Counted from the first letter of the stretch, positions 5,153 to 60,469 are shown. The stretch is 64,000 bases of DNA from Escherichia coli (GCF_003334815.1 NZ_QOWO01000018.1), one strand, 5' to 3'. The notes: generated by a model from the sequence alone, not told the origin. Numbers and translations: made by a program.

Positions 5153-5223
5153 GTGTGTGTCAATAGTTGCTTAAAAGACGACCGATCATAACGGCGAACG
5201 GAGCCGATGACAAGAAAGTTTTA

Positions 5224-5982
<759 letters not shown>

Positions 5983-6012
5983 TTACCTCTCAGTGTGAAA
6001 CGGAAGGTTGTG

Positions 6013-6735
6013 ATGAAACCGGCAAGAGTCCCTCAAACTGTCGTGGCTCCTGATTGCTGGGGCGATTTGCCCTGGGGAAAGCTTTATCGCAAGGCGCTGG
6101 AGCGCCAGCTCAACCCGTGGTTCACTAAAATGTATGGTTCTCATCTGCTTAAGATTGGCAATTTAAGCGCAGAAATCAATTGCGAAGCGTGCGCGGTTTC
6201 TCATCAAGTGAATGTTTCTGCGCAAGGAATGCCCGTCCAGGTACAGGCGGACCCACTTCATCTTCCTTTTGCCGATAAATCCGTTGATGTTTGTCTACTG
6301 GCACATACATTGCCGTGGTGCACCGATCCGCATCGTTTATTGCGTGAAGCCGATCGGGTATTGATTGATGATGGCTGGCTGGTCATTAGTGGCTTCAATC
6401 CCATCAGTTTTATGGGATTACGCAAACTTGTGCCGGTATTGCGCAAAACCTCGCCCTATAACAGCCGGATGTTTACTCTGATGCGGCAGCTGGACTGGCT
6501 CTCTTTGTTGAATTTTGAAGTGCTACACGCCAGCCGTTTCCACGTTCTCCCGTGGAACAAACACGGAGGAAAACTATTGAATGCGCATATTCCTGCGCTT
6601 GGTTGCTTACAACTTATTGTTGCCCGGAAACGGACTATTCCTTTAACGCTAAATCCGATGAAACAGAGTAAAAACAAGCCACGAATTCGCCAGGCGGTTG
6701 GAGCCACCCGGCAATGTCGTAAACCACAGGCTTAA
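6013..6735 (+). CDS. yafS: Putative SAM-dependent methyltransferase
   Basis: ORF 5995..6735; ATG at 6013 chosen as start; conserved position between gloB and rnhA. Confidence 0.7.
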
Positions 6736-7199
6736 ACTTCAACTTGGTAGCCTGTATCTTCCAGTGTGGGATTCATCGCCGCGGCACGAGCCAGTTCATC
6801 ACAGCGTTCGTTTTCCGGGTGTCCGGCATGGCCTTTAACCCATTCCCATTTGATTTGATGCTGCCCCAATGCAGCATCAAGACGTTGCCAGAGATCGACA
6901 TTTTTTACTGGTTTTTTGTCTGCGGTTTTCCAGCCACGTTTTTTCCAGTTATGGATCCACTGGGTGATACCCTGGCGGACATACTGGCTGTCGGTACTCA
7001 AAATGACTTCGCAATGTTCTTTTAACGCCTCCAGCGCGACAATAGCGGCCATCAACTCCATACGGTTGTTGGTGGTGCGGGTGTAGCCAGCGCTAAAGGT
7101 TTTCTCGCGTCCGCGATAGCGTAAAATAGCGCCGTAACCCCCAGGTCCTGGATTGCCCAGACACGAACCATCGGTGAAAATTTCTACCTGTTTAAGCAT
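6732..7199 (-). CDS. rnhA: Ribonuclease HI
   Basis: 155-aa product [26 protein letters not shown]... with RNase H catalytic residues; the ORF track's longer N-terminus rejected in favour of the ATG at 7199. Confidence 0.9.
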
Positions 7200-7263
7200 C
7201 TCTGGTAGACTTCCTGTAATTGAATCGAACTGTAAAACGACAAGTCTGACATAAATGACCGCT

Positions 7264-7995
7264 ATGAGCACTGCAATTACACGCCAGATCGTTCTCGATA
7301 CCGAAACCACCGGTATGAACCAGATTGGTGCGCACTATGAAGGCCACAAGATCATTGAGATTGGTGCCGTTGAAGTGGTGAACCGTCGCCTGACGGGCAA
7401 TAACTTCCATGTTTATCTCAAACCCGATCGGCTGGTGGATCCGGAAGCCTTTGGCGTACATGGTATTGCCGATGAATTTTTGCTCGATAAGCCCACGTTT
7501 GCCGAAGTAGCCGATGAGTTCATGGACTATATTCGCGGCGCGGAGTTGGTGATCCATAACGCAGCGTTCGATATCGGCTTTATGGACTACGAGTTTTCGT
7601 TGCTTAAGCGCGATATTCCGAAGACCAATACTTTCTGTAAGGTCACCGATAGCCTTGCGGTGGCGAGGAAAATGTTTCCCGGTAAGCGCAACAGCCTCGA
7701 TGCGTTATGTGCTCGCTACGAAATAGATAACAGTAAACGAACGCTGCACGGGGCATTACTCGATGCCCAGATCCTTGCGGAAGTTTATCTGGCGATGACC
7801 GGTGGTCAAACGTCGATGGCTTTTGCGATGGAAGGAGAGACACAACAGCAACAAGGTGAAGCAACAATTCAGCGCATTGTACGTCAGGCAAGTAAGTTAC
7901 GCGTTGTTTTTGCGACAGATGAAGAGATTGCAGCTCATGAAGCCCGTCTCGATCTGGTGCAGAAGAAAGGCGGAAGTTGCCTCTGGCGAGCATAA
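7264..7995 (+). CDS. dnaQ: DNA polymerase III epsilon subunit (3'-5' proofreading exonuclease)
   Basis: [19 protein letters not shown]... DEDD exonuclease motifs; divergent from rnhA as in enterobacteria. Confidence 0.9.
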
Positions 7996-8070
7996 ATACC
8001 TGTGAAAGGCGCTAAAAATAGCGACTTGGGCGATTTTTGCAGCAAACGATTCAAAAGATGAGAAAAACCG

Positions 8071-8099
8071 TTGACGAAGGTCGAGGCAATCCGTAATAT
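8071..8099 (+). promoter_or_regulatory. Sigma-70-type promoter for aspV
   Basis: TTGACG, 17-bp spacer, TAATAT, about 30 bp upstream of the tRNA 5' end. Confidence 0.5.
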
Positions 8100-8127
8100 T
8101 CGCCTCGTTCCCAACGGAACACAACGC

Positions 8128-8204
8128 GGAGCGGTAGTTCAGTCGGTTAGAATACCTGCCTGTCACGCAGGGGGTCGCGGGTTCGAGTCCCGTCCGTTCC
8201 GCCA
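8128..8204 (+). tRNA. aspV: tRNA-Asp (GUC anticodon)
   Basis: Identical 77-nt tRNA-Asp sequence ending in CCA; tRNA genes are common island integration sites. Confidence 0.95.
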
Positions 8205-8234
8205 CTATTCACTCATGAAAATGAGTTCAGAGAG

Positions 8235-8265
8235 CCGCAAGATTTTTAATTTTGCGGTTTTTTTG
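8235..8265 (+). terminator. Rho-independent terminator after aspV
   Basis: ccgcaa-gatttttaattt-ttgcgg followed by a T7 run. Confidence 0.6.
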
Positions 8266-8531
8266 TATTTGAATTCCACCATTTCTCTGTTCAATGATTT
8301 TACTCTGGCGTAGGTGCGTGATTCTCGCTTGTTGTCTCATTCATTAAAATTCAATAATGATATCGAACCATTCAGCTTAAATATATTTCTAGAGAATAAA
8401 TTTATATTGATTAAATGAATGTATATTTCAAATTGATTTTGTTTGTTATTATTTAAGTGAGGTATATAATTAGAGTCCGTTATCAATGCTAAATATTCTA
8501 ATCATTATGACAGGCGAGGGAGTGTCCAATT

Positions 8532-9317
8532 ATGAATTCAAAAAAGCTTTGTTGCATATGTGTGTTATTCTCGCTGCTTGCAGGATGTGCCTCTGAATCT
8601 TCTATTGATGAAAAGAAGAAAAAAGCTCAAGTCACACAAAGTAATATTAATAAAAACACTCCCCAGCAACTGACAGACAAAGATTTATTCGGTAATGAAA
8701 CCACTCTGGCCGTATCCGAAGAGGATATTCAAGCTGCGCTTGATGGAGATGAGTTCCGCGTTCCCCTTAATTCTCCTGTAATACTTGTTCAATCCGGCAA
8801 CCGCGCACCGGAAACCATTATGCAGGAGGAGATGCGAAAATATTATACTGTTTCCACATTCTCTGGTATCCCGGACAGGCAAAAGCCTCTGACTTGTAAC
8901 AAAAACAAAGATAAAAATGAGAACGAGGATGTTGCCAGTGCTGAGAATATGAACTGGATGCAGGCACTGCGTTTTGTGGCTGCAAAAGGACATCAGAAAG
9001 CGATTATTGTTTACCAGGATATGTTGCAGACAGGAAAATATGACTCTGCGCTGAAATCAACAGTATGGTCCGACTATAAAAATGACAAACTCACTGACGC
9101 TATCTCCCTGCGCTACCTGGTACGTTTCACGCTGGTGGATGTGGCAACAGGTGAGTGGGCTACCTGGTCGCCGGTGAATTATGAATATAAAGTGCTTCCA
9201 CCATTGCCCGACAAGAATGAAGCCAGTACGACTGATATGACAGAGCAGCAAATCATGCAACTTAAGCAAAAGACCTATAAAGCGATGGTAAAAGATTTGG
9301 TTAACCGCTATCAATAA
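8532..9317 (+). CDS. yafT: Putative lipoprotein
   Basis: 261-aa ORF with lipoprotein signal peptide and lipobox (SLLAGC); AT-rich context downstream of aspV. Confidence 0.75.
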
Positions 9318-9453
9318 TAAATTATATCTGCCGCCAGGAATTTCTGGCGGCAATAATACAAAATTCTTTGCATAAGAAATTTTTCTTGACAAAGACAGTG
9401 CAAGAAAGGACATGGAATCCGGAGTTAAAAACTGTTTGTTTTAGAATATTTAA

Positions 9454-9933
9454 TTATTTAACTGCTGAATCTTCCTTGCGAGAAATATATCCATTATTAC
9501 ATTTCATGCCATTTTTAATATAGATTGCTCCTGGGAAAATTCCCGTATTATTACCGCAGGGGTGATAATTAGTATTGACATATCCTGTGACAAAAGGAGC
9601 TATTAAAGGTGCTATTACGATAGCTATTAGTAAAAATATAAGAGTTAGCTGTATTGTTATGTCTGTGGCGAAATTGACTACCTTCGTTTTTTTGATTAAG
9701 AATGATTTTATTATCGTAAGTAAAATTACATGAATATTTAAAAAGGAAAACGACATGAAACCGAAGCACAGAATCAACATTCTCCAATCATAAAATATTT
9801 CCGTGGAGCATTTTATTATTGAATATAGAGGTTTAACTCCGGTAAAAAACAAAGAAGCATTGAATGCAGGGAAAAATAATATGGCCATAAAAAACATCGA
9901 AAGAAACTCTTTTAATTTAACATGTAAACGCAT
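9454..9933 (-). CDS. ykfM: Small multi-pass membrane protein (candidate immunity protein)
   Basis: 159-aa very hydrophobic low-GC ORF; RBS GAGGA upstream; immediately downstream of the yafU-like gene. Confidence 0.65.
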   Translation of the reverse strand: MRLHVKLKEFLSMFFMAILFFPAFNASLFFTGVKPLYSIIKCSTEIFYDWRMLILCFGFMSFSFLNIHVILLTIIKSFLIKKTKVVNFATDITIQLTLIFLLIAIVIAPLIAPFVTGYVNTNYHPCGNNTGIFPGAIYIKNGMKCNNGYISRKEDSAVK

Positions 9934-30567: not shown

Positions 30568-30740
30568 GGCTTACTTTCTCTGCTGTAATGGTATGGGCGA
30601 TTTTGTGCACGCAAATCCGGCAGTGACACAAGGTGAGGTATTAAATAGAGGGGGAGTGAAAGGGGCAAATTATTAATAGGATGAAAAAATAATTAAATTA
30701 TTAAAGGGCTAGATATCAGGCATCGTCATAACACATTGCA

Positions 30741-30833
<93 letters not shown>

Positions 30834-30953
30834 ATAACTCATTGTTTACCATAAAATAATATTTTTATTATCGTTTAATTCGAACTTGTTAATCCCGCCG
30901 GTGATACGCTTCACAATATCCTGTTTTCTGTCGCTACTGATATCGTTCACCCT

Positions 30954-31940
30954 ATGTCTGAACTTATTGCAACTGCCGCTTCCAGCATTAACGCTTTTAC
31001 TCTGGCAAAGCGTGTCGCCGCATTTAACGTGCCGGTGCTCATTCAGGGCGAAACCGGCGCGGGCAAAGAATGCGTGGCGAAATATATTCACACCGTAGCC
31101 TTTGGTGAAAATGATAACGCGCCCTATATCGGCGTGAACTGCGCAGCGATCCCGGAAAACATGCTGGAAGCTACATTATTTGGCTACGACAAAGGCGCAT
31201 TTACCGGCGCAATTGCCAGTGTGCCAGGAAAAATGGAACTAGCGAATAACGGCACCTTATTACTCGATGAAATTGGCGATATGCCGCTGGCGCTACAGGC
31301 CAAAATATTACGCGTATTGCAGGAGCAACAGGTTGAGCGATTAGGCAGCAACCGACAAATTAAACTCAATTTTCGCCTGATTGCCTGCACCAATAAAAAC
31401 CTTGAACAGGAAGTGGCTGCCGGGCGTTTTCGTGAAGATCTCTATTATCGTCTGGCGGTTATTCCTATTACCATGCCGCCACTGCGTGAACGTCTGAACG
31501 ATATTATTCCGCTGGCAGAGTCATTTATAAAAAAGTACTCCACGGTGCTGGTGAAAAATATCACCCTTTCAGAATCTACCCGCCGGGCGCTGCTCAATTA
31601 CCGCTGGCCCGGCAACGTGCGCCAGCTGGAGAACGCCATTCAGCGGGGAATGATTTTAAATCGCGACGGCGTGATTTACCCGGATGCCTTAGGCCTGCCG
31701 GAAACGGACGTTGCCGACCGCAGCGAACTGCAATGGCCTGTTCAGCCCGCCGTCCACATTGCCGAAACCAGCGATTTGGGCCAGCACGGACGAAGCGCCC
31801 AGTATCAATATATCGCTGACCTGATGCGTAAATATCAGGGCAACCGCAGCAAAATCGCCGACCTGTTAGGCATTACCCCGCGCGCACTGCGCTATCGACT
31901 GGCCTCCATGCGCAAGCAAGGTATCGAAGTTTTCTCCTGA
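30954..31940 (+). CDS. lafK: Sigma-54-dependent transcriptional activator (AAA+ domain plus C-terminal HTH; no receiver domain)
   Basis: Walker A GETGAGKE about 30 aa from the N-terminus, GAFTGA sigma-54 contact motif, C-terminal HTH (IADLLGITPRALRYRL). Confidence 0.85.
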   Translation: MSELIATAASSINAFTLAKRVAAFNVPVLIQGETGAGKECVAKYIHTVAFGENDNAPYIGVNCAAIPENMLEATLFGYDKGAFTGAIASVPGKMELANNGTLLLDEIGDMPLALQAKILRVLQEQQVERLGSNRQIKLNFRLIACTNKNLEQEVAAGRFREDLYYRLAVIPITMPPLRERLNDIIPLAESFIKKYSTVLVKNITLSESTRRALLNYRWPGNVRQLENAIQRGMILNRDGVIYPDALGLPETDVADRSELQWPVQPAVHIAETSDLGQHGRSAQYQYIADLMRKYQGNRSKIADLLGITPRALRYRLASMRKQGIEVFS

Positions 31941-36981: not shown

Positions 36982-37416
36982 ATGCGACAAATCATCGACA
37001 CCCTGGCGCAGTTGCAGCGCCTGCGGGATAAATCGGTCAAAGACAAAACCGTCGAGCTGGCAAAGCAAAAACAGATTTGCGCGGGTTATGACAACAATAT
37101 CAAGGCGTTAGGCTACCTTGTCGAGAAAACATCTGCGGGTGCGGCGGTGTCGGTGGAATCGCTGAAAAACGTCAGCGGCTACAAAGGCACCCTGCGCAAG
37201 GTAATCGCCTGGCAGGAGCAGGAAAAAACGCTGGCCAATATCAAAGCCACGCGAATGCAGAAAAACCTCACGGCGGCGGCGTGCGAAGAGAAAGTAGTCG
37301 CCCTGACGCTGGACGACAAACGCCGCGAGCAACAAGAAAGCGCCACGGCGAAAGCGCAAAAAGCGGTGGACGACATCGCCGTGCAGTGCTGGCTGCGGCA
37401 CAAATTAGCGGAGTAG
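36982..37416 (+). CDS. lfiJ: Lateral flagellar export chaperone, FliJ homologue
   Basis: Coiled-coil about 145-aa protein after FliI; ATG at 36982. Confidence 0.7.
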   Translation: MRQIIDTLAQLQRLRDKSVKDKTVELAKQKQICAGYDNNIKALGYLVEKTSAGAAVSVESLKNVSGYKGTLRKVIAWQEQEKTLANIKATRMQKNLTAAACEEKVVALTLDDKRREQQESATAKAQKAVDDIAVQCWLRHKLAE

Positions 37417-37418
37417 CC

Positions 37419-37814
37419 ATGAAAACGGTCATCACCTTCGGCACCTTCGATGTGTTTCATGTCGGTCATCTGCGCCTTTTACAACGCGCCCGCGCATTGG
37501 GCGAGCGGCTGCTGGTCGGCGTATCGTCCGACGCCCTGAACATCGCCAAAAAGGGCAGGGCACCGGTTTACCATCAGGATGACCGCATGGCGATCATCGC
37601 CGGGCTGGCGTGCGTGGATGGCGTATTTCTGGAAGAGTCGCTGGAGCAAAAAGCGGAGTATTTGCGCGGGTACAGTGCGGATATTTTAGTGATGGGGGAT
37701 GACTGGGCAGGGAAGTTTGACAGCTTTGCGTATATTTGTGAGGTGGTCTATTTCCCCCGCACGCCGTCGGTGTCGACGACGGGGATTATTGAGGTGATTA
37801 GAGGGCTTTTATAA
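37419..37814 (+). CDS. Glycerol-3-phosphate cytidylyltransferase (TagD-like, CDP-glycerol synthesis)
   Basis: 131-aa product MKTVITFGTFDVFHVGHLRLL...ILVMGDDWAGKFDSF...CEVVYFPRTPSVSTTGII with HxGH and RTxGISTT motifs; ATG at 37419. Confidence 0.8.
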   Translation: MKTVITFGTFDVFHVGHLRLLQRARALGERLLVGVSSDALNIAKKGRAPVYHQDDRMAIIAGLACVDGVFLEESLEQKAEYLRGYSADILVMGDDWAGKFDSFAYICEVVYFPRTPSVSTTGIIEVIRGLL

Positions 37815-37839
37815 AGTACTAAAACAGAGATGTATTTTC

Positions 37840-37930
<91 letters not shown>

Positions 37931-37931
37931 T

Positions 37932-40376
37932 TTACCCCAGCGCCTCCACAATCACAATCGCCGCCCGTTCTCCCGCCTTGCCATCCATAAACGCATCGCA
38001 ATAGTGATGGCGAATCTCCGTAAGCCGCGCCTGCACCGACCCCCAGTCAAACGCCTCTGACAACAAATAACGCAGTTCTGCAACATCATGAGCAACCGGC
38101 AATATTTCGCGGATTCGCTGGTCGGCGCTCTCTGCCGTGGAATAACTTTTCTCACCGTCGAGCAAATCATTCATGCCCGGAAAGTCGAGCAGGATCACCC
38201 GCTTATCAACGTGGATAGCATCGAAAATAAACCCGCTGTTATCGGTCAGCACGTAATCGGCTTTTGCCAGCAGCGCCAGCGTGTGGCGGGCGGAGTCGGT
38301 GCGCTGTTTTAAATGCCTGCGCACCAGGGCCAGCGATGCTGCTTCTTCCGGGCGTGAGCAGGTGCCATGGTGCAGTTTGCAAATCAGGTTCACATCACCG
38401 CTCAAGCGGCCCAATTTTTCAGCCCAGTGGGGCAGGGAGCTTAATGCGCCAAACGTTGGGGCATAGAGCACCGTAGGTTTACGGTAATCTGATTGGATGT
38501 TTTCCGGCAACGCGCGATCGAACGTGCCGTTATGCCAGGCGTCGAAGCGCGGGTTGCCGACCACTTTTGCGCTGCCGAAATGCGCCAGCGCCTGCTGACT
38601 GTAGTGGCTATAACACAAAATGCTTTGGTAAAAACGATTCCAGTCGGCGTGGTTCCACGTCTCTTTGGCTAAGCCGTACATAGCGCGGATGTTCACCGCC
38701 GCCAGGCCATTGAGCGCAGGCGTGTGGTAGGGGCTGACCAGGCATTTCACCCGCTGACCATGTGTCTGCATTTCTGACAGACGCATACCTTTAAGCTGCG
38801 GATCGTCGATGTTTTTCAGTGTTTCCAGCATCTCATCAAGAAACGGTTTAAACACGCGGTCATTGATCACTAGTGTGCAGCTCTGCCCCTGCGCCTGTAG
38901 AGCGGTGATGATTGGGCGGTACAGCGTGTAGTGGAATGAGGTTTCCATAAAAAAGCCGATGGTATCGGCGATGGGTAATGTAGATGGCTTGGTGGCTACG
39001 GGTAACTTATTGAAATAGTGAGCAATATTATCAGTCGTTTTTTTCTCGATATCACTAAAACCCGGTCGCTGGTAGCAAAGGCTCGGGTAACAGGCCAGCC
39101 ATTTGTCGGCGCGTAGCAGCGGCTGCCAGCAGGCTTCCAGCGAGTGCTCATCGTTGCTCATCTGCTGCGCCAGTTGCGGGTAGTAGCGGCTGTTCACCAG
39201 ATACGCGCACACTTTGCGGCAGTCCCGCGCGTGCACCAGCCCCGGCAAACTTTTTAGCATCGTTCCCTGCGAAATTTCGCCACCGAGGATCATCACCTGC
39301 CAGGGAATTTTCGCCAGGCTCGCCAGCAGCGTGTTCAGTACCTGAATATGTTTCTCCTGCTTGAGAATAACCGCGTCATCTTCCAGCAGCAGGTAGTTTT
39401 GCCAGCCGTGCTGTTGCGCCAGGCGCAGCGCCTGTAAGTGCGACTGACGGCGGCCCCGTTGACCGTTTTCATCTTCACTGGCGGCAAGGCGGGTGATCTT
39501 CTCAGGTGGAATATGCAGCAATGCCAGTTCTTCACGGATCTGTTGTAAGCGATCCGGGCGTTTATCCAGATTCAGCAGAACGATCTGATCGATCGCCTGA
39601 TGGTTGATCGCCTGGTGATGAGTGGCGTTATGCAGACTCAGATAAGCATTGCGCAGCAGCGGATCGCGGACGATATCCGTAAGCGCCGCGTTTACTGGCG
39701 TGCTGGCCCCGAGAATAAAATCTTTATCAAAGGTGTTGTGACTATGCGAGATACACAGAATCGTGCGCTCGCCGGGCAGTTGCAGCGGGTTTACGCTGAA
39801 ATTGTCGGTGAAACGTTTCTCTTCGCCTAAATTGCAATCATCGTCGTAACGGTGCTTTTTCAGGTAGTTACGGTGATAGCAAAAGGTGCCGTTGAGGATG
39901 TTATGCGGGCCAAAGCTGCGGCTTTGAAAGATGCGGTTGATGTGGCTGTACCAGATGGGGATCTGATCGGAGCCGGAGATGAGCGCCCGGTGTTTTTGCA
40001 TCATGGCGATGGTGTAAGAGATTTTATCTGCCGGGTAGTAGTCGTCATCGTCCATGCAGAGGATGTATTCGCCGCGCGCCAGTTCGTTGAGCATGTTGCG
40101 TTTTTTGCCCAGCGGCAGTTTTTCCGGGTGATGGATGTAGCGGATGTTAAAGGCTTCCGGCGTGCCATTGGTCAGGCGGTCGATGATGTGTTGATGGCTT
40201 TGTGGGGAATCGTCGAGGATGATGAGTTCGCGGCGGTCTGCCGGGTAATCCTGATAGCGGTACATATAGAGCAGGTACGGCAGGAATGCGCCGCGGTTCC
40301 AGGTTGGCGTGACGACGCTGACAAACGGTTTTTCGCGGTGGGTGTTGAGTGTTTTGATGATGGTTGGTGTTGGCAT
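37932..40376 (-). CDS. Multidomain glycosyltransferase (N-terminal GT-A/GT2-like, central GT25-like, C-terminal TagB/TagF-like CDP-glycerol glycerophosphotransferase)
   Basis: ORF 37932..40448; ATG at 40376 chosen (upstream residues lie in the inverted-repeat element); motifs VSVVTPTWNR, ILDDSP, DDDDYY, central VLLNLDKRPDRL, C-terminal VLYAPTF / YVLTDNSGFIFDAIHVDKRVILL. Confidence 0.65.
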   Translation of the reverse strand: MPTPTIIKTLNTHREKPFVSVVTPTWNRGAFLPYLLYMYRYQDYPADRRELIILDDSPQSHQHIIDRLTNGTPEAFNIRYIHHPEKLPLGKKRNMLNELARGEYILCMDDDDYYPADKISYTIAMMQKHRALISGSDQIPIWYSHINRIFQSRSFGPHNILNGTFCYHRNYLKKHRYDDDCNLGEEKRFTDNFSVNPLQLPGERTILCISHSHNTFDKDFILGASTPVNAALTDIVRDPLLRNAYLSLHNATHHQAINHQAIDQIVLLNLDKRPDRLQQIREELALLHIPPEKITRLAASEDENGQRGRRQSHLQALRLAQQHGWQNYLLLEDDAVILKQEKHIQVLNTLLASLAKIPWQVMILGGEISQGTMLKSLPGLVHARDCRKVCAYLVNSRYYPQLAQQMSNDEHSLEACWQPLLRADKWLACYPSLCYQRPGFSDIEKKTTDNIAHYFNKLPVATKPSTLPIADTIGFFMETSFHYTLYRPIITALQAQGQSCTLVINDRVFKPFLDEMLETLKNIDDPQLKGMRLSEMQTHGQRVKCLVSPYHTPALNGLAAVNIRAMYGLAKETWNHADWNRFYQSILCYSHYSQQALAHFGSAKVVGNPRFDAWHNGTFDRALPENIQSDYRKPTVLYAPTFGALSSLPHWAEKLGRLSGDVNLICKLHHGTCSRPEEAASLALVRRHLKQRTDSARHTLALLAKADYVLTDNSGFIFDAIHVDKRVILLDFPGMNDLLDGEKSYSTAESADQRIREILPVAHDVAELRYLLSEAFDWGSVQARLTEIRHHYCDAFMDGKAGERAAIVIVEALG

Positions 40377-40401
40377 GGTGTTTGGGTGAGTTAATGGGTG
40401 A

Positions 40402-40548
40402 ATGTGATGAATGTGCGCGCTGATGCCCTCACCCCAACCCTCTCCCACAGGGAGAGGGAGAAAATCAGCGCCGATTTTAACACTGTGCTCGATCGGTCCC
40501 CTCGCCCCTTTGGGGAGAGGGTTAGGGTGAGGGGCAAAGCGCGCACAG
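40402..40548. mobile_element. MITE-like element with about 35-bp terminal inverted repeats (family unassigned)
   Basis: Left arm tgtgcgcgctgatgccctcaccccaaccctctccc (40402..40436) and right arm, reverse-complemented, tgtgcgcgctttgcccctcaccctaaccctctccc (40514..40548); internal palindrome ccctctccc/gggagaggg. Confidence 0.55.
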
Positions 40549-40554
40549 AGCGAC

Positions 40555-41484
40555 TCACGTTAGCAGCGAAAACGCTGAAAGCAGCGGGTCGGCGGCACAT
40601 AACGACTGAATTTGCTGGCGAACCAACAGCGCATTTTCACTGGCTCGCCAGCGTTCAAACATGGCAAAGAGGGCGAAAATATCCTCCTGCCGCAGCGAAG
40701 AACCATCCAGCGTCCATAAACTGATTAACGTGCGGAGGAGATAAAAATCGCACACCAGCGGGAAATAATCCGCCCCGTCAGTCTGCCCAATCACATCGTG
40801 GTAAACGCGGTAAATCAGCCAGTTACGCATCATCCAGGGCGCGGTGGCAAAATGCTGTTGCCAGGTGGTTTGCCACTGCGTCTGAAGCTGCTGTTGTAAC
40901 AGGGCTTCGCTGTTAGCGTCATGCAGCGTCAGCAAAGGCATCTGCAACGGCAGCGAAGTTTTGCGCGGGCTTTCCGGCAAAATCGACCAGTCAAACGTAA
41001 AACTCCCGAGTAACGTGGCCAGGTGACGCGCCAGCTGTGGCACGGGCGGCAGCTGGGCGAACTGTGCCTGTAGGATGCCTTTTTTCGCATGATCGGCCAG
41101 CGCCTGCGGCAGCGTCGTCAAACGGGCAAGAATATCTCCGTCTCTGCCCGGCATTTTACTGGCGCGGGAGAGCAGGATACCGACGGCATACAATGACAGT
41201 TCTGGTGTTAAATCACGGAGCGTGAGGGTACTCAAAATCACCTGGTTTACTATCGCATCGCGCGCGGAAAGCTCTGCGGCATTTTCTTCCACAGGACGGT
41301 AGGTGAGCTGTAAATCAAAGGCCCTGACATCGTTGAGCATCGCTTCGCAGCTTTCTGGCTCTGTCAGCATCAGGCTCAGGCGAATCTCGTTTTTCCACAC
41401 CTTGCGGACGTATAAAGGCGAACCGGGGTATTGCGTCATAAAATTGCGCACGTATTCCGGTTCGTAACATTCAATAAAACTCAT
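40555..41484 (-). CDS. Hypothetical protein (Flag-2 accessory, unknown function)
   Basis: 309-aa ORF from the ATG at 41484; no recognisable motifs; sigma-54-type promoter upstream. Confidence 0.6.
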   Translation of the reverse strand: MSFIECYEPEYVRNFMTQYPGSPLYVRKVWKNEIRLSLMLTEPESCEAMLNDVRAFDLQLTYRPVEENAAELSARDAIVNQVILSTLTLRDLTPELSLYAVGILLSRASKMPGRDGDILARLTTLPQALADHAKKGILQAQFAQLPPVPQLARHLATLLGSFTFDWSILPESPRKTSLPLQMPLLTLHDANSEALLQQQLQTQWQTTWQQHFATAPWMMRNWLIYRVYHDVIGQTDGADYFPLVCDFYLLRTLISLWTLDGSSLRQEDIFALFAMFERWRASENALLVRQQIQSLCAADPLLSAFSLLT

Positions 41485-41518
41485 AGGTGGCTTCCAGTCT
41501 TTAATGCTGTGCAGGATG

Positions 41519-41534
41519 TGCAATAAGCGTGCCG
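41519..41534 (-). promoter_or_regulatory. Sigma-54-type promoter (-24 GG / -12 GC) upstream of the hypothetical/glycosyltransferase genes
   Basis: Minus strand reads CGGCACG-CTTA-TTGCA (plus strand tgcaataagcgtgccg), matching TGGCACG-N4-TTGCA at 14 of 15 fixed positions with correct GG/GC spacing; about 35 bp upstream of the ATG at 41484. Confidence 0.55.
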
Positions 41535-41611
41535 GGATTTTTTGTAGTCAAAAACAAGGGATTGGCAATCAGGCGGAAAATCCGTTTCCGCGATGGGGGA
41601 AGGTATTGTCG

Positions 41612-42040
41612 TTATTCCTGATACAGAAAATCTGCTTCGCTGCCTAAAAACGACTGAATAAATTCATACTGGCGAATCAACAACTCGCCGTTTTTATCGT
41701 TGTAGGCTTTGCAGCGTTCCGCTTTTTGCTCAAGGTGTTGCCACAATTGTTGTGCTGCCGCTTTTTGTACCGCCGGAAGCCAGGCAAACACCTGCGCCAG
41801 ACCGTCACGATTTACGCTAACACCGAGCATTTTCAGCAGGCTATGCCGCTGATGGCTATGGCTGTGTAACTGCTCATAGTGATGCGTAATCTCATCGTTT
41901 ACCGCCAGCAACTCCTCGCTGGCGCGGCGAATCATGCAGATCCGCTGGCGCTGGAGACGTTCGCGCAGGGAATCATACAGCGCGTCGTCGTCACGAATTC
42001 CCTGCAACAACGCCTTCACCTGTTGTAACCGGATACTCAC
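41612..42040 (-). CDS. lfgN: Lateral flagellar chaperone, FlgN homologue
   Basis: 142-aa ORF downstream of the FlgM homologue; FlgN-like size and helical character. Confidence 0.65.
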   Translation of the reverse strand: MSIRLQQVKALLQGIRDDDALYDSLRERLQRQRICMIRRASEELLAVNDEITHHYEQLHSHSHQRHSLLKMLGVSVNRDGLAQVFAWLPAVQKAAAQQLWQHLEQKAERCKAYNDKNGELLIRQYEFIQSFLGSEADFLYQE

Positions 42041-42052
42041 TTCATCGGCCTC

Positions 42053-42331
42053 TTAGTTCTGGAAAAAACTCAGCATGTCGCTGGCTAACTGTTCAGTGTC
42101 CACTTGCGGGCTGCCGGACGCCAGCATCGCCTGCACTTGCGCCACTTTGTTGCTGTCGATATCGCTCTCTTGCTGGTCGTTCAGCGTTTGCTGGGCAGAC
42201 TGCAATCCCGCCTGAGTAATGTCGTCGGCGCTCAGCGTCGTGGTGGTGGTCGCCGTGGTTTTGCGCGGCTGGCTGGAGCCTGCCGTTGTGGTTGTTGGGC
42301 GATTGCCTGGCATAGTCGGGGTGATTTTCAT
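42053..42331 (-). CDS. lfgM: Anti-sigma-28 factor, FlgM homologue
   Basis: 92-aa ORF with Thr-rich N-terminus and conserved FlgM C-terminal region (ASGSPQVDTEQLASDML). Confidence 0.7.
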   Translation of the reverse strand: MKITPTMPGNRPTTTTAGSSQPRKTTATTTTTLSADDITQAGLQSAQQTLNDQQESDIDSNKVAQVQAMLASGSPQVDTEQLASDMLSFFQN

Positions 42332-42411
42332 CGCAACCTCGTCTCGGTATTTGGGTGGGTTACTCCGGTAAAGCGGTTAACAGGCGGCAAAACTTTAATC
42401 GCCAGCGCAAA

Positions 42412-43149
42412 TTACTCCGCGCTTACCGTTGTCACCACGCCGCTTTCCGCCACCATCGCGCTGATGACCCGCTGGCTGCTGGCGTTACGCACTTTCACCA
42501 TCTCGCCTTTGCGACCATTTTTCAGCGTCACGCCGGGCATCGAGGCGGTGATCCCCGCGCTCTGGTAAACAATCATCACCGGCTGATCGCGCCCGACCAG
42601 CACCGGAGACACCAGCTCTTCTTTGGTGATTGGCCTGCCTGGTTGCAGCGCGTGTTTACTGCTGAAACCAATCGCGTCATCGAGTTCCATCAACACCTCC
42701 CTGCGCTGGGCGCTGACGTTGTAGGGCTTCAACTCCACATCATTTGCCGTGAGCGGCGTATCGCGGGCAACCAGTGACTTTGTCATCACCACCGGCACCA
42801 GCACATCCGGGCGCACCGCCACGTTCATCTGCCAGCTTTGCGGGCAACTGACGGTGAAGTTCATCCGGTTGAGGGCGATTTCCGCAGGCGAAGTGAGCGT
42901 AACGCCGGGTGTAGTCGCACAGGGCGCGGCGGTCGCAATCTGCGAGGGAATGTAGACCTTAAAGGTGTAGTGATAGTCATGCCACTGCCGCTGTTGCGCC
43001 AGCGATTCAATTTTTTGGCTCGCGGCATTCAGCACCTGGGCGTTGACTTGTTCCCGCGCGCTGTGCTGCACGGGGTGGACGGCGGCGTAGCCCGGTAAGG
43101 CCAGCGCCAGGAGGAAATAAAACTTCCGCCTGCAAAATTGAAAACTCAT
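42412..43149 (-). CDS. lfgA: Lateral flagellar P-ring assembly chaperone, FlgA homologue
   Basis: Signal peptide plus FlgA-like C-terminal domain; ATG at 43149; divergent from lfgB. Confidence 0.7.
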   Translation of the reverse strand: MSFQFCRRKFYFLLALALPGYAAVHPVQHSAREQVNAQVLNAASQKIESLAQQRQWHDYHYTFKVYIPSQIATAAPCATTPGVTLTSPAEIALNRMNFTVSCPQSWQMNVAVRPDVLVPVVMTKSLVARDTPLTANDVELKPYNVSAQRREVLMELDDAIGFSSKHALQPGRPITKEELVSPVLVGRDQPVMIVYQSAGITASMPGVTLKNGRKGEMVKVRNASSQRVISAMVAESGVVTTVSAE

Positions 43150-43178
43150 AAACCCTTTCTCATCAGTCACTTAAAAAA

Positions 43179-43193
43179 TGGCACGGCGATTGC
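43179..43193 (+). promoter_or_regulatory. Sigma-54 promoter upstream of lfgB
   Basis: Perfect TGGCAC-N5-TTGC (tggcacggcgattgc), about 40 bp upstream of the proposed lfgB start. Confidence 0.7.
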
Positions 43194-43230
43194 TTAGCGT
43201 ATGCGGATTGAAGCAGGAGTGACGCAGGAA

Positions 43231-43566
43231 ATGGGGATCAGTTTTCAACAGGCATTGGGAGTACATCCGCAGGCAGTGAAGTTACGTCTTGAGAGGACCG
43301 AGCTACTGACTGCGAATCTGGCGAACGTCGATACGCCAAATTTCAAGGCTAAAGATATTGATTTTGCCAGGGAGATGCAACGGGCAAATAACGCGGCGGT
43401 GGATGTCCAGTACCGCGTGCCGATGCAGCCGTCGGAAGATGGCAACACCGTGGAGCTGAACAGCGAACAGGCGCGGTTTTCACAAAATAGTATGGATTAT
43501 CAAAGCAGTCTGACCTTTCTGAATCTGCAAATCAGCGGCATCAGAGAGGCCATTGAAGGGAAATAA
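43231..43566 (+). CDS. lfgB: Lateral flagellar proximal rod protein, FlgB homologue
   Basis: ORF 43201..43566; ATG at 43231 chosen because the ORF-track start overlaps the promoter/TSS; FlgB-like N-terminus. Confidence 0.75.
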   Translation: MGISFQQALGVHPQAVKLRLERTELLTANLANVDTPNFKAKDIDFAREMQRANNAAVDVQYRVPMQPSEDGNTVELNSEQARFSQNSMDYQSSLTFLNLQISGIREAIEGK

Positions 43567-49943: not shown

Positions 49944-49951
49944 AGCTCCGA

Positions 49952-50175
<224 letters not shown>

Positions 50176-50246
50176 GTTTACGGAATTTAAGAATCCCCAT
50201 CTTCACGCCGCTTTTAACCGGCACGATTTACCGGTAAGGATCCAAC

Positions 50247-54462: not shown

Positions 54463-54947
54463 AGTTGAGTTTACCTTAGCAAGGGATAAATGTTTCCTGA
54501 TAGTGCTTTGCATAAAGCACAGTCTTATACGTCCCTGAGAAGATGATTTTTCTGCGTGATAATTAATATTTTATGGTAATAGGATTATTCTTAATCACTA
54601 TATGGCGTGGAAATGTAACGAAATGACAGGACAGGTACAATAGCCAAATGTGTACTATTTGCAACGCAATGTAAATTTTGGCATCAGTACATTGAGAAGA
54701 AAACGCGTTAATTGATGGTAATCTTAACTATATCAAGCGTTTGATAAAGACATATTTTGATACCTGGCCATGTGGCAGATATTGCTAATAATCTTTTTAT
54801 CTGAATTTAAACTCTGCTTTTTTTAGCTAAAAGTGGCATCAGATAAACCGCAGTGAAATTTTTTTAACGGCGGTTTTAAGTTTGCTCCCGAGGTGTCGTT
54901 TTTACAGGGTATCGAAACGAAAACGATTAATCCCAAGGAGCAGTATC

Positions 54948-55862
54948 ATGTTATCTATTAACACCAATAACGCCTCAATGGCCGCCGTTAATGCAATCAG
55001 CAAAAGCAGCTCTTCTCTGTCTACATCTATGGAACGCCTGGCGACAGGTAACCGGATTAACTCTTCTGCCGATGACGCCGCAGGCAAACAAATTGCTAAC
55101 CGTCTGACAGCACAGTCCAGCGGTATGGATGTTGCGCTGAGCAACATCAATGATGCCACCGCGATGCTGCAAACCGCCGACAGCATGTTCGACGAAATGT
55201 CTGACGTGCTGGGTCGTATGAAAGACCTGTCAACTCAGGCAGCGAACGGCACCTACAGCGACGACGATCTGCAGGCGATGCAGGACGAATACGACGAACT
55301 GGGCCAGCAGATGTCTGACATGCTGCAAAACACCACCTACGGCGGCACCAACCTGTTCGGTGTTTCCGGCACCAGCAACACCGGTACTGACGGCCTGTTC
55401 CAGAGCGCGGTAACTTTCCAGGTGGGCGCGGAATCTTCCGACACCATGACCGTGAACATCTCTAGCCAACTGAACACGCTGGTGACTGACCTTTCTGCTA
55501 TCAGCAACTCCTTCAGTGCGGATCAGGCAGACACCACAGGCACCGCAGGCGTTTCTGGCGGTACTGAACTGACTGCGTCTGGCTCGGCTAACCAGATGAT
55601 CACCAGCATTTCTACCGCGATGGATGATGTTTCGCAGATCCAGTCCAAGCTGGGTGCGTCTATCAACCGTCTGAACGACACGGCTAATAACCTGACCAGT
55701 ATGCAGGACAACACCGAAGTTGCTATCGGTAACATCATGGATACCGACTACGCTACGGAAGCGTCCAATATGACCAAACAGCAGGTGCTGATGCAGACCG
55801 GCATCACCATGCTGAAACAGTCCAACAGCATGTCCAGCATGGTTTCCAGCCTGCTGCAGTAA
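54948..55862 (+). CDS. lafA: Lateral flagellin
   Basis: 304-aa product MLSINTNNASMAAVNAISKSS...RLATGNRINSSADDAAG... with conserved flagellin termini; AAGGAG RBS; variable Ser/Thr-rich central region. Confidence 0.9.
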   Translation: MLSINTNNASMAAVNAISKSSSSLSTSMERLATGNRINSSADDAAGKQIANRLTAQSSGMDVALSNINDATAMLQTADSMFDEMSDVLGRMKDLSTQAANGTYSDDDLQAMQDEYDELGQQMSDMLQNTTYGGTNLFGVSGTSNTGTDGLFQSAVTFQVGAESSDTMTVNISSQLNTLVTDLSAISNSFSADQADTTGTAGVSGGTELTASGSANQMITSISTAMDDVSQIQSKLGASINRLNDTANNLTSMQDNTEVAIGNIMDTDYATEASNMTKQQVLMQTGITMLKQSNSMSSMVSSLLQ

Positions 55863-55869
55863 TGGCGGA

Positions 55870-55978
55870 CTTGCCGGATGCGGCGTGAACGCCTTATCCG
55901 GCCTACAAAATATTGCAAATTCAATATATTGCAGAAACCTTGTAGGCCTGATAAGCGCAGCGCATCAGGCAGTGTTGC
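55870..55978. repeat. REP pair (BIME) downstream of lafA
   Basis: Two inverted REP palindromes. Confidence 0.7.
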
Positions 55979-55991
55979 GTTTGTCATCAGT

Positions 55992-56020
55992 CTCAACACC
56001 GCCTGCGGGCGGTGTTGTTC
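55992..56020 (+). terminator. Rho-independent terminator downstream of lafA
   Basis: caacaccgcc-tgcg-ggcggtgttg hairpin followed by a T-rich tract. Confidence 0.55.
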
Positions 56021-56105
56021 TTTCTGCGGCAGGCGTATTTCCACCAGACCGGAAATGGCCTTTCCGCCCATTTTTCAATCTATTGATTATTCACATAAAA
56101 ATTAT

Positions 56106-56120
56106 TGGCACGCCTTTTGC
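56106..56120 (+). promoter_or_regulatory. Sigma-54 promoter upstream of lafB
   Basis: Perfect TGGCAC-N5-TTGC (tggcacgccttttgc), 33 bp upstream of the lafB start. Confidence 0.7.
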
Positions 56121-56152
56121 CAATAACCTGACATCGTTATCCGGAGTCATCA

Positions 56153-57469
56153 ATGATCAACCCAAGAACCATTGCGCAAGAAATCGCTTATGCAGATGTC
56201 GCCACTCAGGCGGCAAACTTGCAGGAGAAGCAAACGGAGCTGGATGCCGAAAGCAGCGGCCTGGACTCGCTCAGCTCGGCGTTGAGCGATTTCCAGAGCG
56301 CCGTGGATGCGCTAAACAGCGATACCGACGGCCCGGTGACCTTCGCTGCCACCAGCAATAATGACTCGGCGACCGTTTCCGCTAACTCGCAGGCGCAGGC
56401 GGGAAGCTACTCGTTTTTCGTTGAACAACTGGCGCAGGGGCAGCAGACCACGTTCAGTATGGGTGATGACACCTTTTCTGCGACGGGGACGTTCGAAATG
56501 ACCATGGGCGACAGCACCATGGATATTGATCTGGCGGCGGCGGATCAGAACGGTGACGGCGACGGTTTTATCGACGCCAGTGAACTGGTGAATGCGATTA
56601 ACGACTCCGATGACAATCCGGGCGTGTCGGCTGCGCTGGTAAAAACCGACGGCACCACCACGATTATGCTCACCTCGGATAGCACCGGGGCGCAGAGCGC
56701 GTTTTCGGTGAGCGTAACGGGGCATGATGCCAGCAACGATAGCGCCAGCGCGCCCGTTGCCACGGATGTTTCCTCCGCTCAGGACGCGATTATTCATCTC
56801 GGTAGCGCCACAGGGCCTGAGATCACCAACAGCAGCAATACATTTGATGATGTGATCCCCGGCGTCACCATGACTTTCACCGAAGTCAGCGATTCTGACA
56901 GCGATCTCACTACCTTTAACATCAGCGAAGATTCCAGCGCCAGTCAGGAGAAAGTACAGACCTTTGTCGATGCCTATAACACCTTGATTGATACGGTTGA
57001 TTCACTGACTACTCATGGTGATGACAGTACCAGCGCCGGGGTATTTGCAGGCGACGCCGGACTCAATTCACTGGCGAACCAGCTCGATGACATCGCCCAT
57101 GCCAACTACAACGGCGTGTCGATTGTTGACTATGGCATCACGCTTGATTCTCACGGCCACTTACAGATTGACTCCGACCAGTTCAACGACGAAATGGCGA
57201 AAAATCCTGACGGTCTGACCTCTATTTTCGTTGGCGACAACAGCATGGTGGCGCAGATGGACGACCTGATTAACACCTACACGGACTCCAGCAACGGCAT
57301 CATCACCCTGCGCCAGCAGAACATTGACGATCAGATGAGCAAAATTCAGGACGAAGGCGATCAGCTTACCGATACCTATAACGCCAACTACGACCGTTAT
57401 CTCGAGGAGTACACCAACACGCTGGTCGAGGTGTACACCATGAAAGCCAGCATGGCGGCATTCGCGTAA
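56153..57469 (+). CDS. lafB: Lateral flagellar filament cap protein, FliD homologue (HAP2)
   Basis: 438-aa ORF; FliD-like coiled-coil termini and Ser/Thr/Asp-rich central domain. Confidence 0.8.
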   Translation: MINPRTIAQEIAYADVATQAANLQEKQTELDAESSGLDSLSSALSDFQSAVDALNSDTDGPVTFAATSNNDSATVSANSQAQAGSYSFFVEQLAQGQQTTFSMGDDTFSATGTFEMTMGDSTMDIDLAAADQNGDGDGFIDASELVNAINDSDDNPGVSAALVKTDGTTTIMLTSDSTGAQSAFSVSVTGHDASNDSASAPVATDVSSAQDAIIHLGSATGPEITNSSNTFDDVIPGVTMTFTEVSDSDSDLTTFNISEDSSASQEKVQTFVDAYNTLIDTVDSLTTHGDDSTSAGVFAGDAGLNSLANQLDDIAHANYNGVSIVDYGITLDSHGHLQIDSDQFNDEMAKNPDGLTSIFVGDNSMVAQMDDLINTYTDSSNGIITLRQQNIDDQMSKIQDEGDQLTDTYNANYDRYLEEYTNTLVEVYTMKASMAAFA

Positions 57470-59752: not shown

Positions 59753-60469
59753 ATGCTACAGGATGTATTCGAGTCGGAAGAATTTGCTGCCGCGCCGGTA
59801 TTAACCCCGCAGCAGGAGAGCCACTACTTGCAGGCCTATTTACCGTTGGTGCGTAAAGTGGTGCGGCAACTTGCCCCGCAGTGTAATTGCATTATTGATC
59901 GTCAGGATATGGAACAAACGGCGTTAATGGGGCTGCTTAATGCCATCCGTCGCTACGGGCTGCCGGACGAAGGTTTTGCGGGCTATGCCGTGCACCGTAT
60001 TCGCGGCGCGATCCTGGATGAGCTGCGCGCTCTCGACTGGCGACCGCGCCAGCTGCGACAGAAATATCATCAGATGAAAGATCTGATTCGCGAAACGCGC
60101 AAAAAACTGGGGCACGAACCGGAGTGGTCAGAACTGGCCGTGGAAGGGATCTCGCATGAAGATTATCTCGAATATCAGCAACTGGAAGGGGCGGAAACGC
60201 TCGCCAGCCTGGACGAACTGCTGAACGGCGAAGGGCCTGGCATTCTGCTTGCTGGCAGGGAGCTGGAAGATCAGTTTGTCACCCAGCAAATGCTGCAACA
60301 GGCGCTTTCACAATTAAGCGAAAAAGAGCAACTGATCCTCTCCATGTATTACCAGCATGAGATGAATCTCAAAGAGATTGCGCTGGTATTAGGGCTAACC
60401 GAGGCCCGAATTTGTCAACTGAATAAACAGATCGCGCAGAAAATTCGTGATTTTGTCTATCCGAATTAA
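59753..60469 (+). CDS. lafS: Lateral flagellar sigma factor (sigma-28/FliA family)
   Basis: 238-aa ORF with sigma-70 region 2 and C-terminal region 4 HTH (LKEIALVLGLTEARICQL). Confidence 0.85.
   Translation: MLQDVFESEEFAAAPVLTPQQESHYLQAYLPLVRKVVRQLAPQCNCIIDRQDMEQTALMGLLNAIRRYGLPDEGFAGYAVHRIRGAILDELRALDWRPRQLRQKYHQMKDLIRETRKKLGHEPEWSELAVEGISHEDYLEYQQLEGAETLASLDELLNGEGPGILLAGRELEDQFVTQQMLQQALSQLSEKEQLILSMYYQHEMNLKEIALVLGLTEARICQLNKQIAQKIRDFVYPN

Follow-up and report, generated by a model that had tools for sequence, protein, structure and literature searches.

A sigma-54 promoter, controlled together with the hook-basal-body (lfgB) and filament-cap (lafB) operons, probably stands in front of lafV, a putative flagellin-modification gene in the Flag-2 (lateral flagella) locus of Escherichia coli. 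The promoter element lies on the minus strand at positions 41519–41534 of a 64,000-nucleotide stretch of E. coli DNA (GCF_003334815.1, NZ_QOWO01000018.1), referred to here as the window. Three features of the sequence support this reading: the -24/-12 core of the element is the sole invariant block in upstream regions that cannot be aligned across ~10 lineages; the same helically phased inverted repeat is found at the lafV, lfgB and lafB promoters, which groups them; and the locus encodes an intact copy of the sigma-54 activator LafK. They also support the original prediction, which had proposed a sigma-54 promoter co-regulated with the hook-basal-body genes. Considered on its own, the lafV motif is very likely a functional sigma-54 promoter.

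Read on the minus strand from 41534 to 41519, the element is CGGCACGCTTATTGCA (CGGCACG-N4-TTGCA, as had been predicted), with GG at 41533–41532 and GC at 41521–41520. The spacing is exactly 10 nt (GG-N10-GC), in agreement with the earlier claim, and the last motif base lies 34 nt before the lafV ATG at 41484, on the same strand and within the 127-nt spacer between lfgN and lafV. Against TGGCACG-N4-TTGCW, 11 of 12 specified positions match, the one mismatch being T to C at the first base; the predicted count of 14 out of 15 positions could not be reproduced, its consensus having been left unstated. By standard sigma-54 geometry, transcription is predicted to start at 41506–41510, ~11–13 nt downstream of the -12 C, which would give a 5' untranslated region of ~24 nt with GGAAG (41494–41490) as the putative ribosome-binding site.

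The two sites that had been cited for comparison are also present. On the plus strand, TGGCACGGCGATTGCT (43179–43194; 18.6 bits) matches the consensus perfectly and ends 36 nt before the lfgB start at 43231, and TGGCACGCCTTTTGCC (56106–56121; 17.5 bits) ends 31 nt before the start at 56153 of lafB, whose operon runs from the filament cap through the sigma-28 gene lafS to the motor genes. Across both strands of the window, the lafV, lfgB and lafB sites were the only matches with GG and GC intact and at most one mismatch, for which a model of independent, identically distributed bases gives an expectation of ~0.35 per window. A background check with a sigma-54 weight matrix (our own approximation of the Barrios 1999 consensus) pointed the same way: lfgB, lafB and lafV held ranks 1 to 3 in the window, the lafV site scoring 16.6 bits, and block-shuffled windows contained only 0.09 matches of at least 16.6 bits each.

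It is very improbable that the lafV motif arose by chance and has no role as a promoter. Loose matches are common, as 14 were observed and 16.8 expected when up to two mismatches were allowed, and good scores occur within genes, an example being TGGCACATACATTGCC (6299–6314, plus strand; 15.2 bits), inside an open reading frame outside Flag-2. Since the loose matches are not enriched, the argument draws on how good the match is, where it lies and how well it is conserved. The rarity of matches this good in shuffled windows, the placement of the site on the right strand and at the right distance within a 127-nt intergenic region, and the co-occurrence with a shared upstream repeat all argue against chance, as does the retention of the motif across species with diverged flanks.

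For this last comparison, one genome per species was scanned, yielding 24 loci with a lafV orthologue (40–92% identity) from Escherichia spp., Pseudocitrobacter, many Citrobacter, Phytobacter, Enterobacter spp., Leminorella and one further enterobacterium. GGCA[CT][GA]-N4-TTGC was found 50–112 nt upstream of lafV in 22 of the 24, representing ~10 sequence-diverged groups, with a variable distance between motif and ATG. When 12 lineage representatives were aligned on the motif, GGCA and TTGC were the sole invariant columns and the flanks were unalignable between groups. The motif was seen again in E. fergusonii-like, E. albertii and further Citrobacter loci, and five further E. coli alleles (91–95% identical here) kept all 16 motif bases in varying flanks. 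The lfgB element was likewise kept, in 23/23 loci that reach lfgB. Conservation of the core in 22/24 loci, together with its invariance among E. coli alleles, excludes a chance match for practical purposes.

A separate observation concerns TGGCATTCTGCTTGCT (60238–60253, plus strand; 14.1 bits), a sigma-54-like match in the 3' portion of lafS and 244 nt short of lafT. The repeat described below precedes neither this match nor the one at 6299, and both are therefore probably chance. A fourth sigma-54 site was also considered and rejected: TGGCATGACTATCGCT, which recurs within lfgA of many loci, encodes W-H-D-Y-R and is degenerate in the window (..ATCACT), and so reflects coding conservation.

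Alignment anchored on the motif revealed an inverted repeat, GGAAA-N5-YTTCC, at a fixed distance upstream, and the lafV, lfgB and lafB promoters all carry it. At lafV the repeat, a candidate LafK enhancer (upstream activating sequence, UAS), is GCGGAAAcggatTTTCCGC (41573–41591, minus strand), centred 48.5 nt upstream of the GG, or at about -73 relative to the predicted start. The lfgB copy is GGAAAtaaaaCTTCCGC (43113–43129, plus strand), centred 59.5 nt upstream of the GG and lying within the first codons of the divergent lfgA; it is kept at 59.5–61.5 nt despite the diverging lfgA N-terminus. At lafB, CGGAAAtggccTTTCCGC (56050–56067, plus strand) is again centred 48.5 nt upstream of the GG. 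Repeat and motif are 40 nt apart at lafV and lafB and 51 nt apart, one helical turn more, at lfgB. In the whole window, exact GGAAANNNNNYTTCC occurs only at 41575, 43113 and 56051, each time before one sigma-54 site.

The pairing of repeat and motif extended to all 47 promoter instances collected (23 lafV-type, 23 lfgB-type and lafB), with at most one mismatch and a spacer of always 5. Their centres fell 47.5–49.5 or 57.5–61.5 nt from the GG, in two classes one helical turn apart, and such a repeat is met at 1.5–2.4% of random positions over the same search range. A composite scan of ~300 kb of loci (repeat, 34–57 nt, GG-N10-GC) returned essentially only the lafV, lfgB and lafB promoters. Two other repeat–motif pairs, antisense in lfiI (36894) and inside the glycosyltransferase gene of the Enterobacter loci L019 and L021, were rejected: both are out of phase, carry 3–4 mismatches and lie in conserved coding sequence, and the lfiI pair is weak.

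Two further elements accompany the repeat. A third half-site, CCTTCC (41598–41603, minus strand), directly follows the lfgN stop codon and completes the arrangement TTCC-N8-GGAA-N7-TTCC; it is kept in the class A consensus, and the lafB promoter shows the same triple arrangement. Between repeat and -24 lies CAATCCCTTGTTT (41552–41564, minus strand), which has one mismatch to the reverse complement of WATCAANNNNTTR, the integration host factor (IHF) consensus. Of 26 representative promoters, 18 have a match at this fixed offset with no more than one mismatch; at lafB and in several Citrobacter lafV promoters there is no mismatch at all. The presence of an IHF site between repeat and -24 is suggestive only. 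At lafB the repeat is preceded by TTTCC-N8 and followed by the perfect IHF match, CAATCTATTGATT (56076–56088).

The presumed activator is encoded nearby. The lafK gene (30954–31940, plus strand) specifies a 328-residue protein with a Walker A motif (GETGAGKE), a Walker B motif, GAFTGA at residues 81–86 and a C-terminal helix-turn-helix (HTH), and with no N-terminal sensory domain. LafK has been grouped with PspF and HrpR/S as having AAA+ and DNA-binding domains and no signal domain (domain class Ic; PMC3162934). In lateral flagellar hierarchies LafK and sigma-54 stand at class II, with a sigma-28 tier later (PMC3930126, PMC4481668, PMC11242183), and LafK dependence is known for structural operons of Vibrio parahaemolyticus and Aeromonas (PMC3930126, PMC4481668). 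We infer that LafK is the activator of the lafV promoter and binds the repeat and, by analogy with V. parahaemolyticus, that it also governs lfgB and lafB in E. coli. In the searchable literature no LafK binding site or electrophoretic mobility shift assay was found, only other regulators acting on laf genes.

From these elements we propose the following model. Sigma-54 holoenzyme would sit on CGGCACG-N4-TTGCA as a closed complex and be opened by LafK bound to GGAAA-N5-TTTCC and the third TTCC half-site, centred at about -73, probably with the help of an IHF-type bend at about -50. Transcription would start at ~41508 on the minus strand, from the -24/-12 element, cover lafV and most probably continue into the gene for an 814-residue glycosyltransferase. 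The lfgB and lafB promoters would share this layout of repeat, bend and promoter, with the repeat at the same position or one helical turn farther away. The modification enzymes would then be class II products, made before the sigma-28-dependent flagellin. In its full form, with LafK acting through the shared repeat and transcription reading into the glycosyltransferase gene, we consider the model moderately probable.

We lean, by a small degree, towards a wider proposal. GGAAA-N5-YTTCC, often extended to TTCC-N8-10-GGAA-N7-TTCC and placed ~48 or ~60 nt before the GG, may be a so-far undescribed enterobacterial Flag-2 enhancer, a candidate 'LafK box'. It would then make up, with the -24/-12 element and the IHF-like site, a compact and portable cassette by which class II is defined. 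The lafV–glycosyltransferase cargo, gained by horizontal transfer, would have been wired into flagellar assembly through a cassette carried along or acquired, and not by simple operon insertion. Locus L020 (Enterobacteriaceae bacterium RIT691, 4000–9500) is relevant here: its tagD–lafV–glycosyltransferase module lies beside flagellin (lafA-like) genes and not after lfgN, the repeat and sigma-54 cassette is kept between tagD and lafV, and a lafB-type cassette lies on the other strand. This suggests that the cassette travels with the genes or gets rebuilt. In the cargo-less loci L035 and L036, where lfgN converges on lfiJ, repeat and motif are both absent after lfgN and both kept at lfgB, which fits the enhancer reading.

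The promoter could be real and the repeat something else, either an RNA stem-loop at the 3' end of lfgN or a site for another Flag-2 regulator, such as the transmembrane protein LafZ, with LafK or another sigma-54 activator acting from elsewhere or from solution; this we judge quite unlikely. The silence of the searchable literature on a LafK binding site would be compatible with it. The repeat folds as a 7-bp RNA hairpin, and in some orthologues (L017, L024) pairing is kept through G-U-type changes. It is also found after lfgN where the sigma-54 motif is not, in L037, L038 and L042–L044, as described below. What is invariant, however, is the GGAA/TTCC sequence and not merely the complementarity, and the three copies sit in transcripts unrelated to one another (after lfgN, antisense in the lfgA coding sequence, and after the lafA terminator), with distances to -24 about one helical turn apart. 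This invariance, the position of the lfgB copy inside lfgA codons on the opposite strand and that of the lafB copy past the lafA hairpin argue against a mere terminator or mRNA 3' hairpin; being downstream of that terminator-like hairpin (55994–56025), the lafB copy is not the lafA terminator either. The absence of the repeat after lfgN where no cargo follows argues in the same direction, and its symmetry and 10-bp half-site spacing would be a better fit for a dimeric HTH protein like LafK than for a winged helix of the ToxR type.

Several observations weigh against the reading of a LafK-activated sigma-54 promoter that acts through the repeat. The main evidence that the repeat is not an enhancer only comes from five Pseudescherichia-like loci (L037, L038, L042–L044), which keep it after lfgN in the form TTCCGC-AGC-GGAAAA-N4-YTTCCG and lack the -24/-12 motif; here the glycosyltransferase gene follows lfgN by 65–76 nt and there is no lafV (at ~4430–4500). 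In these loci the repeat may have been left behind when a deletion took out promoter and lafV, or it may have a second function. The lafV promoter is moreover dispensable in some lineages, since in the two exceptions among the 24 loci, L019 and L021, lafV lies ~25 nt past lfgN with no promoter of its own, joined to the upstream operon. With its centre at -73, the repeat lies rather near the promoter to serve as a looping enhancer, and the IHF match is to a degenerate consensus, reached with at most one mismatch in 18 of the 26 promoters. In V. parahaemolyticus and Aeromonas, LafK does not act as a strict master regulator (PMC3930126, PMC4481668). Downstream, the 178-nt spacer before the glycosyltransferase gene consists of strong palindromes in this strain, and an E. 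fergusonii-like locus has a terminator-like hairpin and T-run at the lafV–glycosyltransferase junction. Class III read-through from the lfgM promoter may add to lafV expression.

If such read-through were the main source of lafV and glycosyltransferase transcripts, chiefly from a sigma-28-like lfgMN promoter or the lfgA promoter, the sigma-54 site would be minor and the genes class III or mixed class II/III; we think this unlikely. A sigma-28-like promoter, TTAAAGTTT ... CCGCTTTA (42366–42398, minus strand), lies upstream of lfgM as a possible source, and its form TAAAGTTT ... CGCTTTA is kept in all fetched loci. It resembles an element 46 nt upstream of lafA, TAAGTTT-N12-TCGTTTTA (54877–54902, plus strand). 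The likeness suggests a LafS-type consensus with a non-canonical -10, CG[CT]TTTA instead of GCCGATAA; the pattern TAAA-N14-17-GCCGATAA was found nowhere, and a GCCGATAA-like -10 was absent from 41485–41611. Searches of 37400–43300 for sigma-70 consensus promoters and for intrinsic terminators gave totals at chance level, with no such promoter and no canonical terminator in the lfgN–lafV spacer. The lfgN 3' region was rejected as a canonical terminator, as its 7-bp hairpin, formed from the repeat, has no U-tract and a z-score of only -1.3. With no terminator after lfgN and a sigma-28-like promoter before lfgM, class III read-through into lafV is possible, and the joined operons of L019 and L021 and the motif-free loci with the glycosyltransferase gene close behind lfgN fit it. 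That the -24/-12 core has stayed under purifying selection in ~10 lineages whose flanks have diverged is nevertheless hard to explain on this basis, and the two routes are not mutually exclusive. An Rfam scan of 40300–43300 returned only sub-threshold eukaryotic families, on a palindromic repeat, and none in the lfgN–lafV spacer.

The position of the 309-residue gene (40555–41484, minus strand; first in the transcription unit) was as the original prediction had it, and the descriptions 'hypothetical' and 'non-flagellar' did not hold. The former came from the RefSeq annotation only; the gene has been named lafV (PMC6993521) and is already regarded as one of flagellin modification. Its family was assigned from NCBIfam and precomputed Pfam annotations. 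LafV matches the FliB profile NF038110 with E 3e-11 and 43.4 bits, below the cut-off of 85, over profile positions 105–363 of 373, and PF27117 (FliB_C) is annotated on all homologues; a Pfam-A scan of the 309-residue protein itself gave no match. Family annotations read 'lysine-N-methylase' or 'lateral flagellar associated protein'. The N-terminal ~100 residues of FliB are missing from LafV, and its score falls short of the family cut-off; methylase activity is therefore unproven, and the name lysine-N-methylase, used by some sources, may overstate what is established.

Downstream on the same strand, the 814-residue multidomain glycosyltransferase (37932–40376) has an N-terminal GT2 domain and a weak CDP-glycerol glycerophosphotransferase-like C-terminal region, which fits the presence of a TagD-like glycerol-3-phosphate cytidylyltransferase gene (37419–37814, plus strand; TIGR01518, E 2e-33). 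Starting 3 nt after lfiJ, the latter is probably part of the lafK–lfiEFGHIJ transcript. The lafV and glycosyltransferase genes are adjacent and on the same strand in 24/24 species' loci, and from this conserved pairing co-transcription of the two is likely. Their gap is 23–100 nt outside Escherichia and Pseudocitrobacter (shortest 23–28 nt, ~50–100 nt in the majority of loci from outside Escherichia). The window has here a spacer of 178 nt (40377–40554) made of GC-rich palindromic repeat units (CCCTCTCCC-N3-GGGAGAGGG, CCCCTCGCCC/GGGTGAGGGG), a repeat that occurs 1–13 times per genome in 4610/5426 E. coli genomes. The spacer contains one weak terminator-like site, at chance level, and no T-tract terminator above chance. 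LafV, a GT2-type glycosyltransferase and TagD have been described as the commonest content of variable region 1 (VR1) of the locus, a putative machinery for flagellin glycosylation and methylation (PMC6993521).

Other bacteria are well known to place flagellar and flagellin-modification genes under sigma-54, and the lafV promoter is an ordinary type of element that alters no general principle; the candidate LafK box is the newest by-product of the analysis. The lateral systems of V. parahaemolyticus and Aeromonas, as PMC3930126, PMC4481668 and PMC11242183 summarise them from Stewart & McCarter 2003, likewise have an activator of the same family beside fliE–J homologues, -24/-12 promoters before flgB-type and fliD/lafB-type (cap/sigma-28) operons, and a later sigma-28 tier for flagellin. 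The lafV promoter differs from these in that it would drive accessory flagellin-modification genes of VR1 and not structural genes.

With the PspF-dependent pspA promoters the Flag-2 promoters share the order repeat, A/T-rich IHF-like site and -24/-12 element, and their presumed activator, LafK, likewise has no sensory domain. The Flag-2 repeat is unrelated in sequence, and any role for IHF, or for a negative regulator of the PspA kind, would be conjectural. The palindromic psp UAS lies farther from its promoter than the Flag-2 repeat does (~-73 or ~-84). The primary flagellar system uses FlhDC with sigma-70, and sigma-28. Compared with Salmonella fliB (NF038110), which encodes the flagellin lysine-N-methylase of the primary regulon, lafV is also embedded in a flagellar cluster; its product has the C-terminal domain of FliB in common and would presumably have flagellin as its substrate. 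It differs in lacking the first ~100 profile residues (43 versus 85 bits), in being paired with a large glycosyltransferase gene and in its predicted dependence on sigma-54 and LafK. The VR1 cargo described by De Maayer in 2020 consists of the identical genes, encoding LafV, TagD and a GT2-type glycosyltransferase. That paper (PMC6993521) nowhere uses 'promoter' or 'transcri*', and the regulatory wiring proposed for the cargo is an addition to it.

About one in four complete E. coli genomes (1279/5426 here) carries Flag-2, whose regulation in enterobacteria is essentially uncharacterised. If the proposed reading is true, a putative flagellin methylase and a glycosyltransferase would be made in the LafK/sigma-54 tier, before flagellin, and this 'variable region' cargo would belong to the flagellar programme. 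Three E. coli promoters would share a simple composite signature usable for regulon prediction elsewhere; should the LafK box be real, the LafK regulon could be predicted from sequence in any Flag-2-positive genome. The helical phasing of the candidate LafK box would yield a model of enterobacterial Flag-2 class II regulation that can be tested directly.

The wider locus was placed by comparison with E. coli chromosomes, to which the window shows identity of up to 100%; in the annotation of strain 300709 Flag-2 lies between rayT and dinB. The plus strand carries lafK–lfiEFGHIJ and then the TagD-like gene, and lfgB starts at 43231, divergent from lfgA. The minus strand carries lfgA (42412–43149), lfgM, lfgN (41612–42040, stop codon 41614–41612), lafV and the glycosyltransferase gene. 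Strain 300709 and the window are 100% identical over 37800–43300. A stretch of 118 bp between lfgJ and lfgK of that strain is absent from the window (at ~49944–50246), and coordinates transferred from it were shifted by 118 beyond ~50 kb, which places lafA at 54948–55862 and lafB at 56153–57469.

Upstream of lfgA (43150–43230) and of the lfiM–lfhA and lafK operons (30568–30953) no recognisable promoter, sigma-54 site or repeat was found. REP/BIME-type palindromic elements (GCCGGATGCGGCGT..., GCCTGATAAG...CATCAGGC) lie at 37842–37920, between the convergent tagD-like and glycosyltransferase genes, at 30737–30833, in the lafK–lfiM intergenic region, and at 55946–55970, 3' of lafA. In E. albertii (L033 and L034, 823–3540) genes for an EcoRII restriction endonuclease and a Dcm-type methylase are inserted between lfgA and lfgM, and lfgA is thereby separated from the sigma-28-like lfgM promoter region; EcoRII/Dcm-type inserts have been reported in 21 Escherichia strains (De Maayer 2020, PMC6993521).

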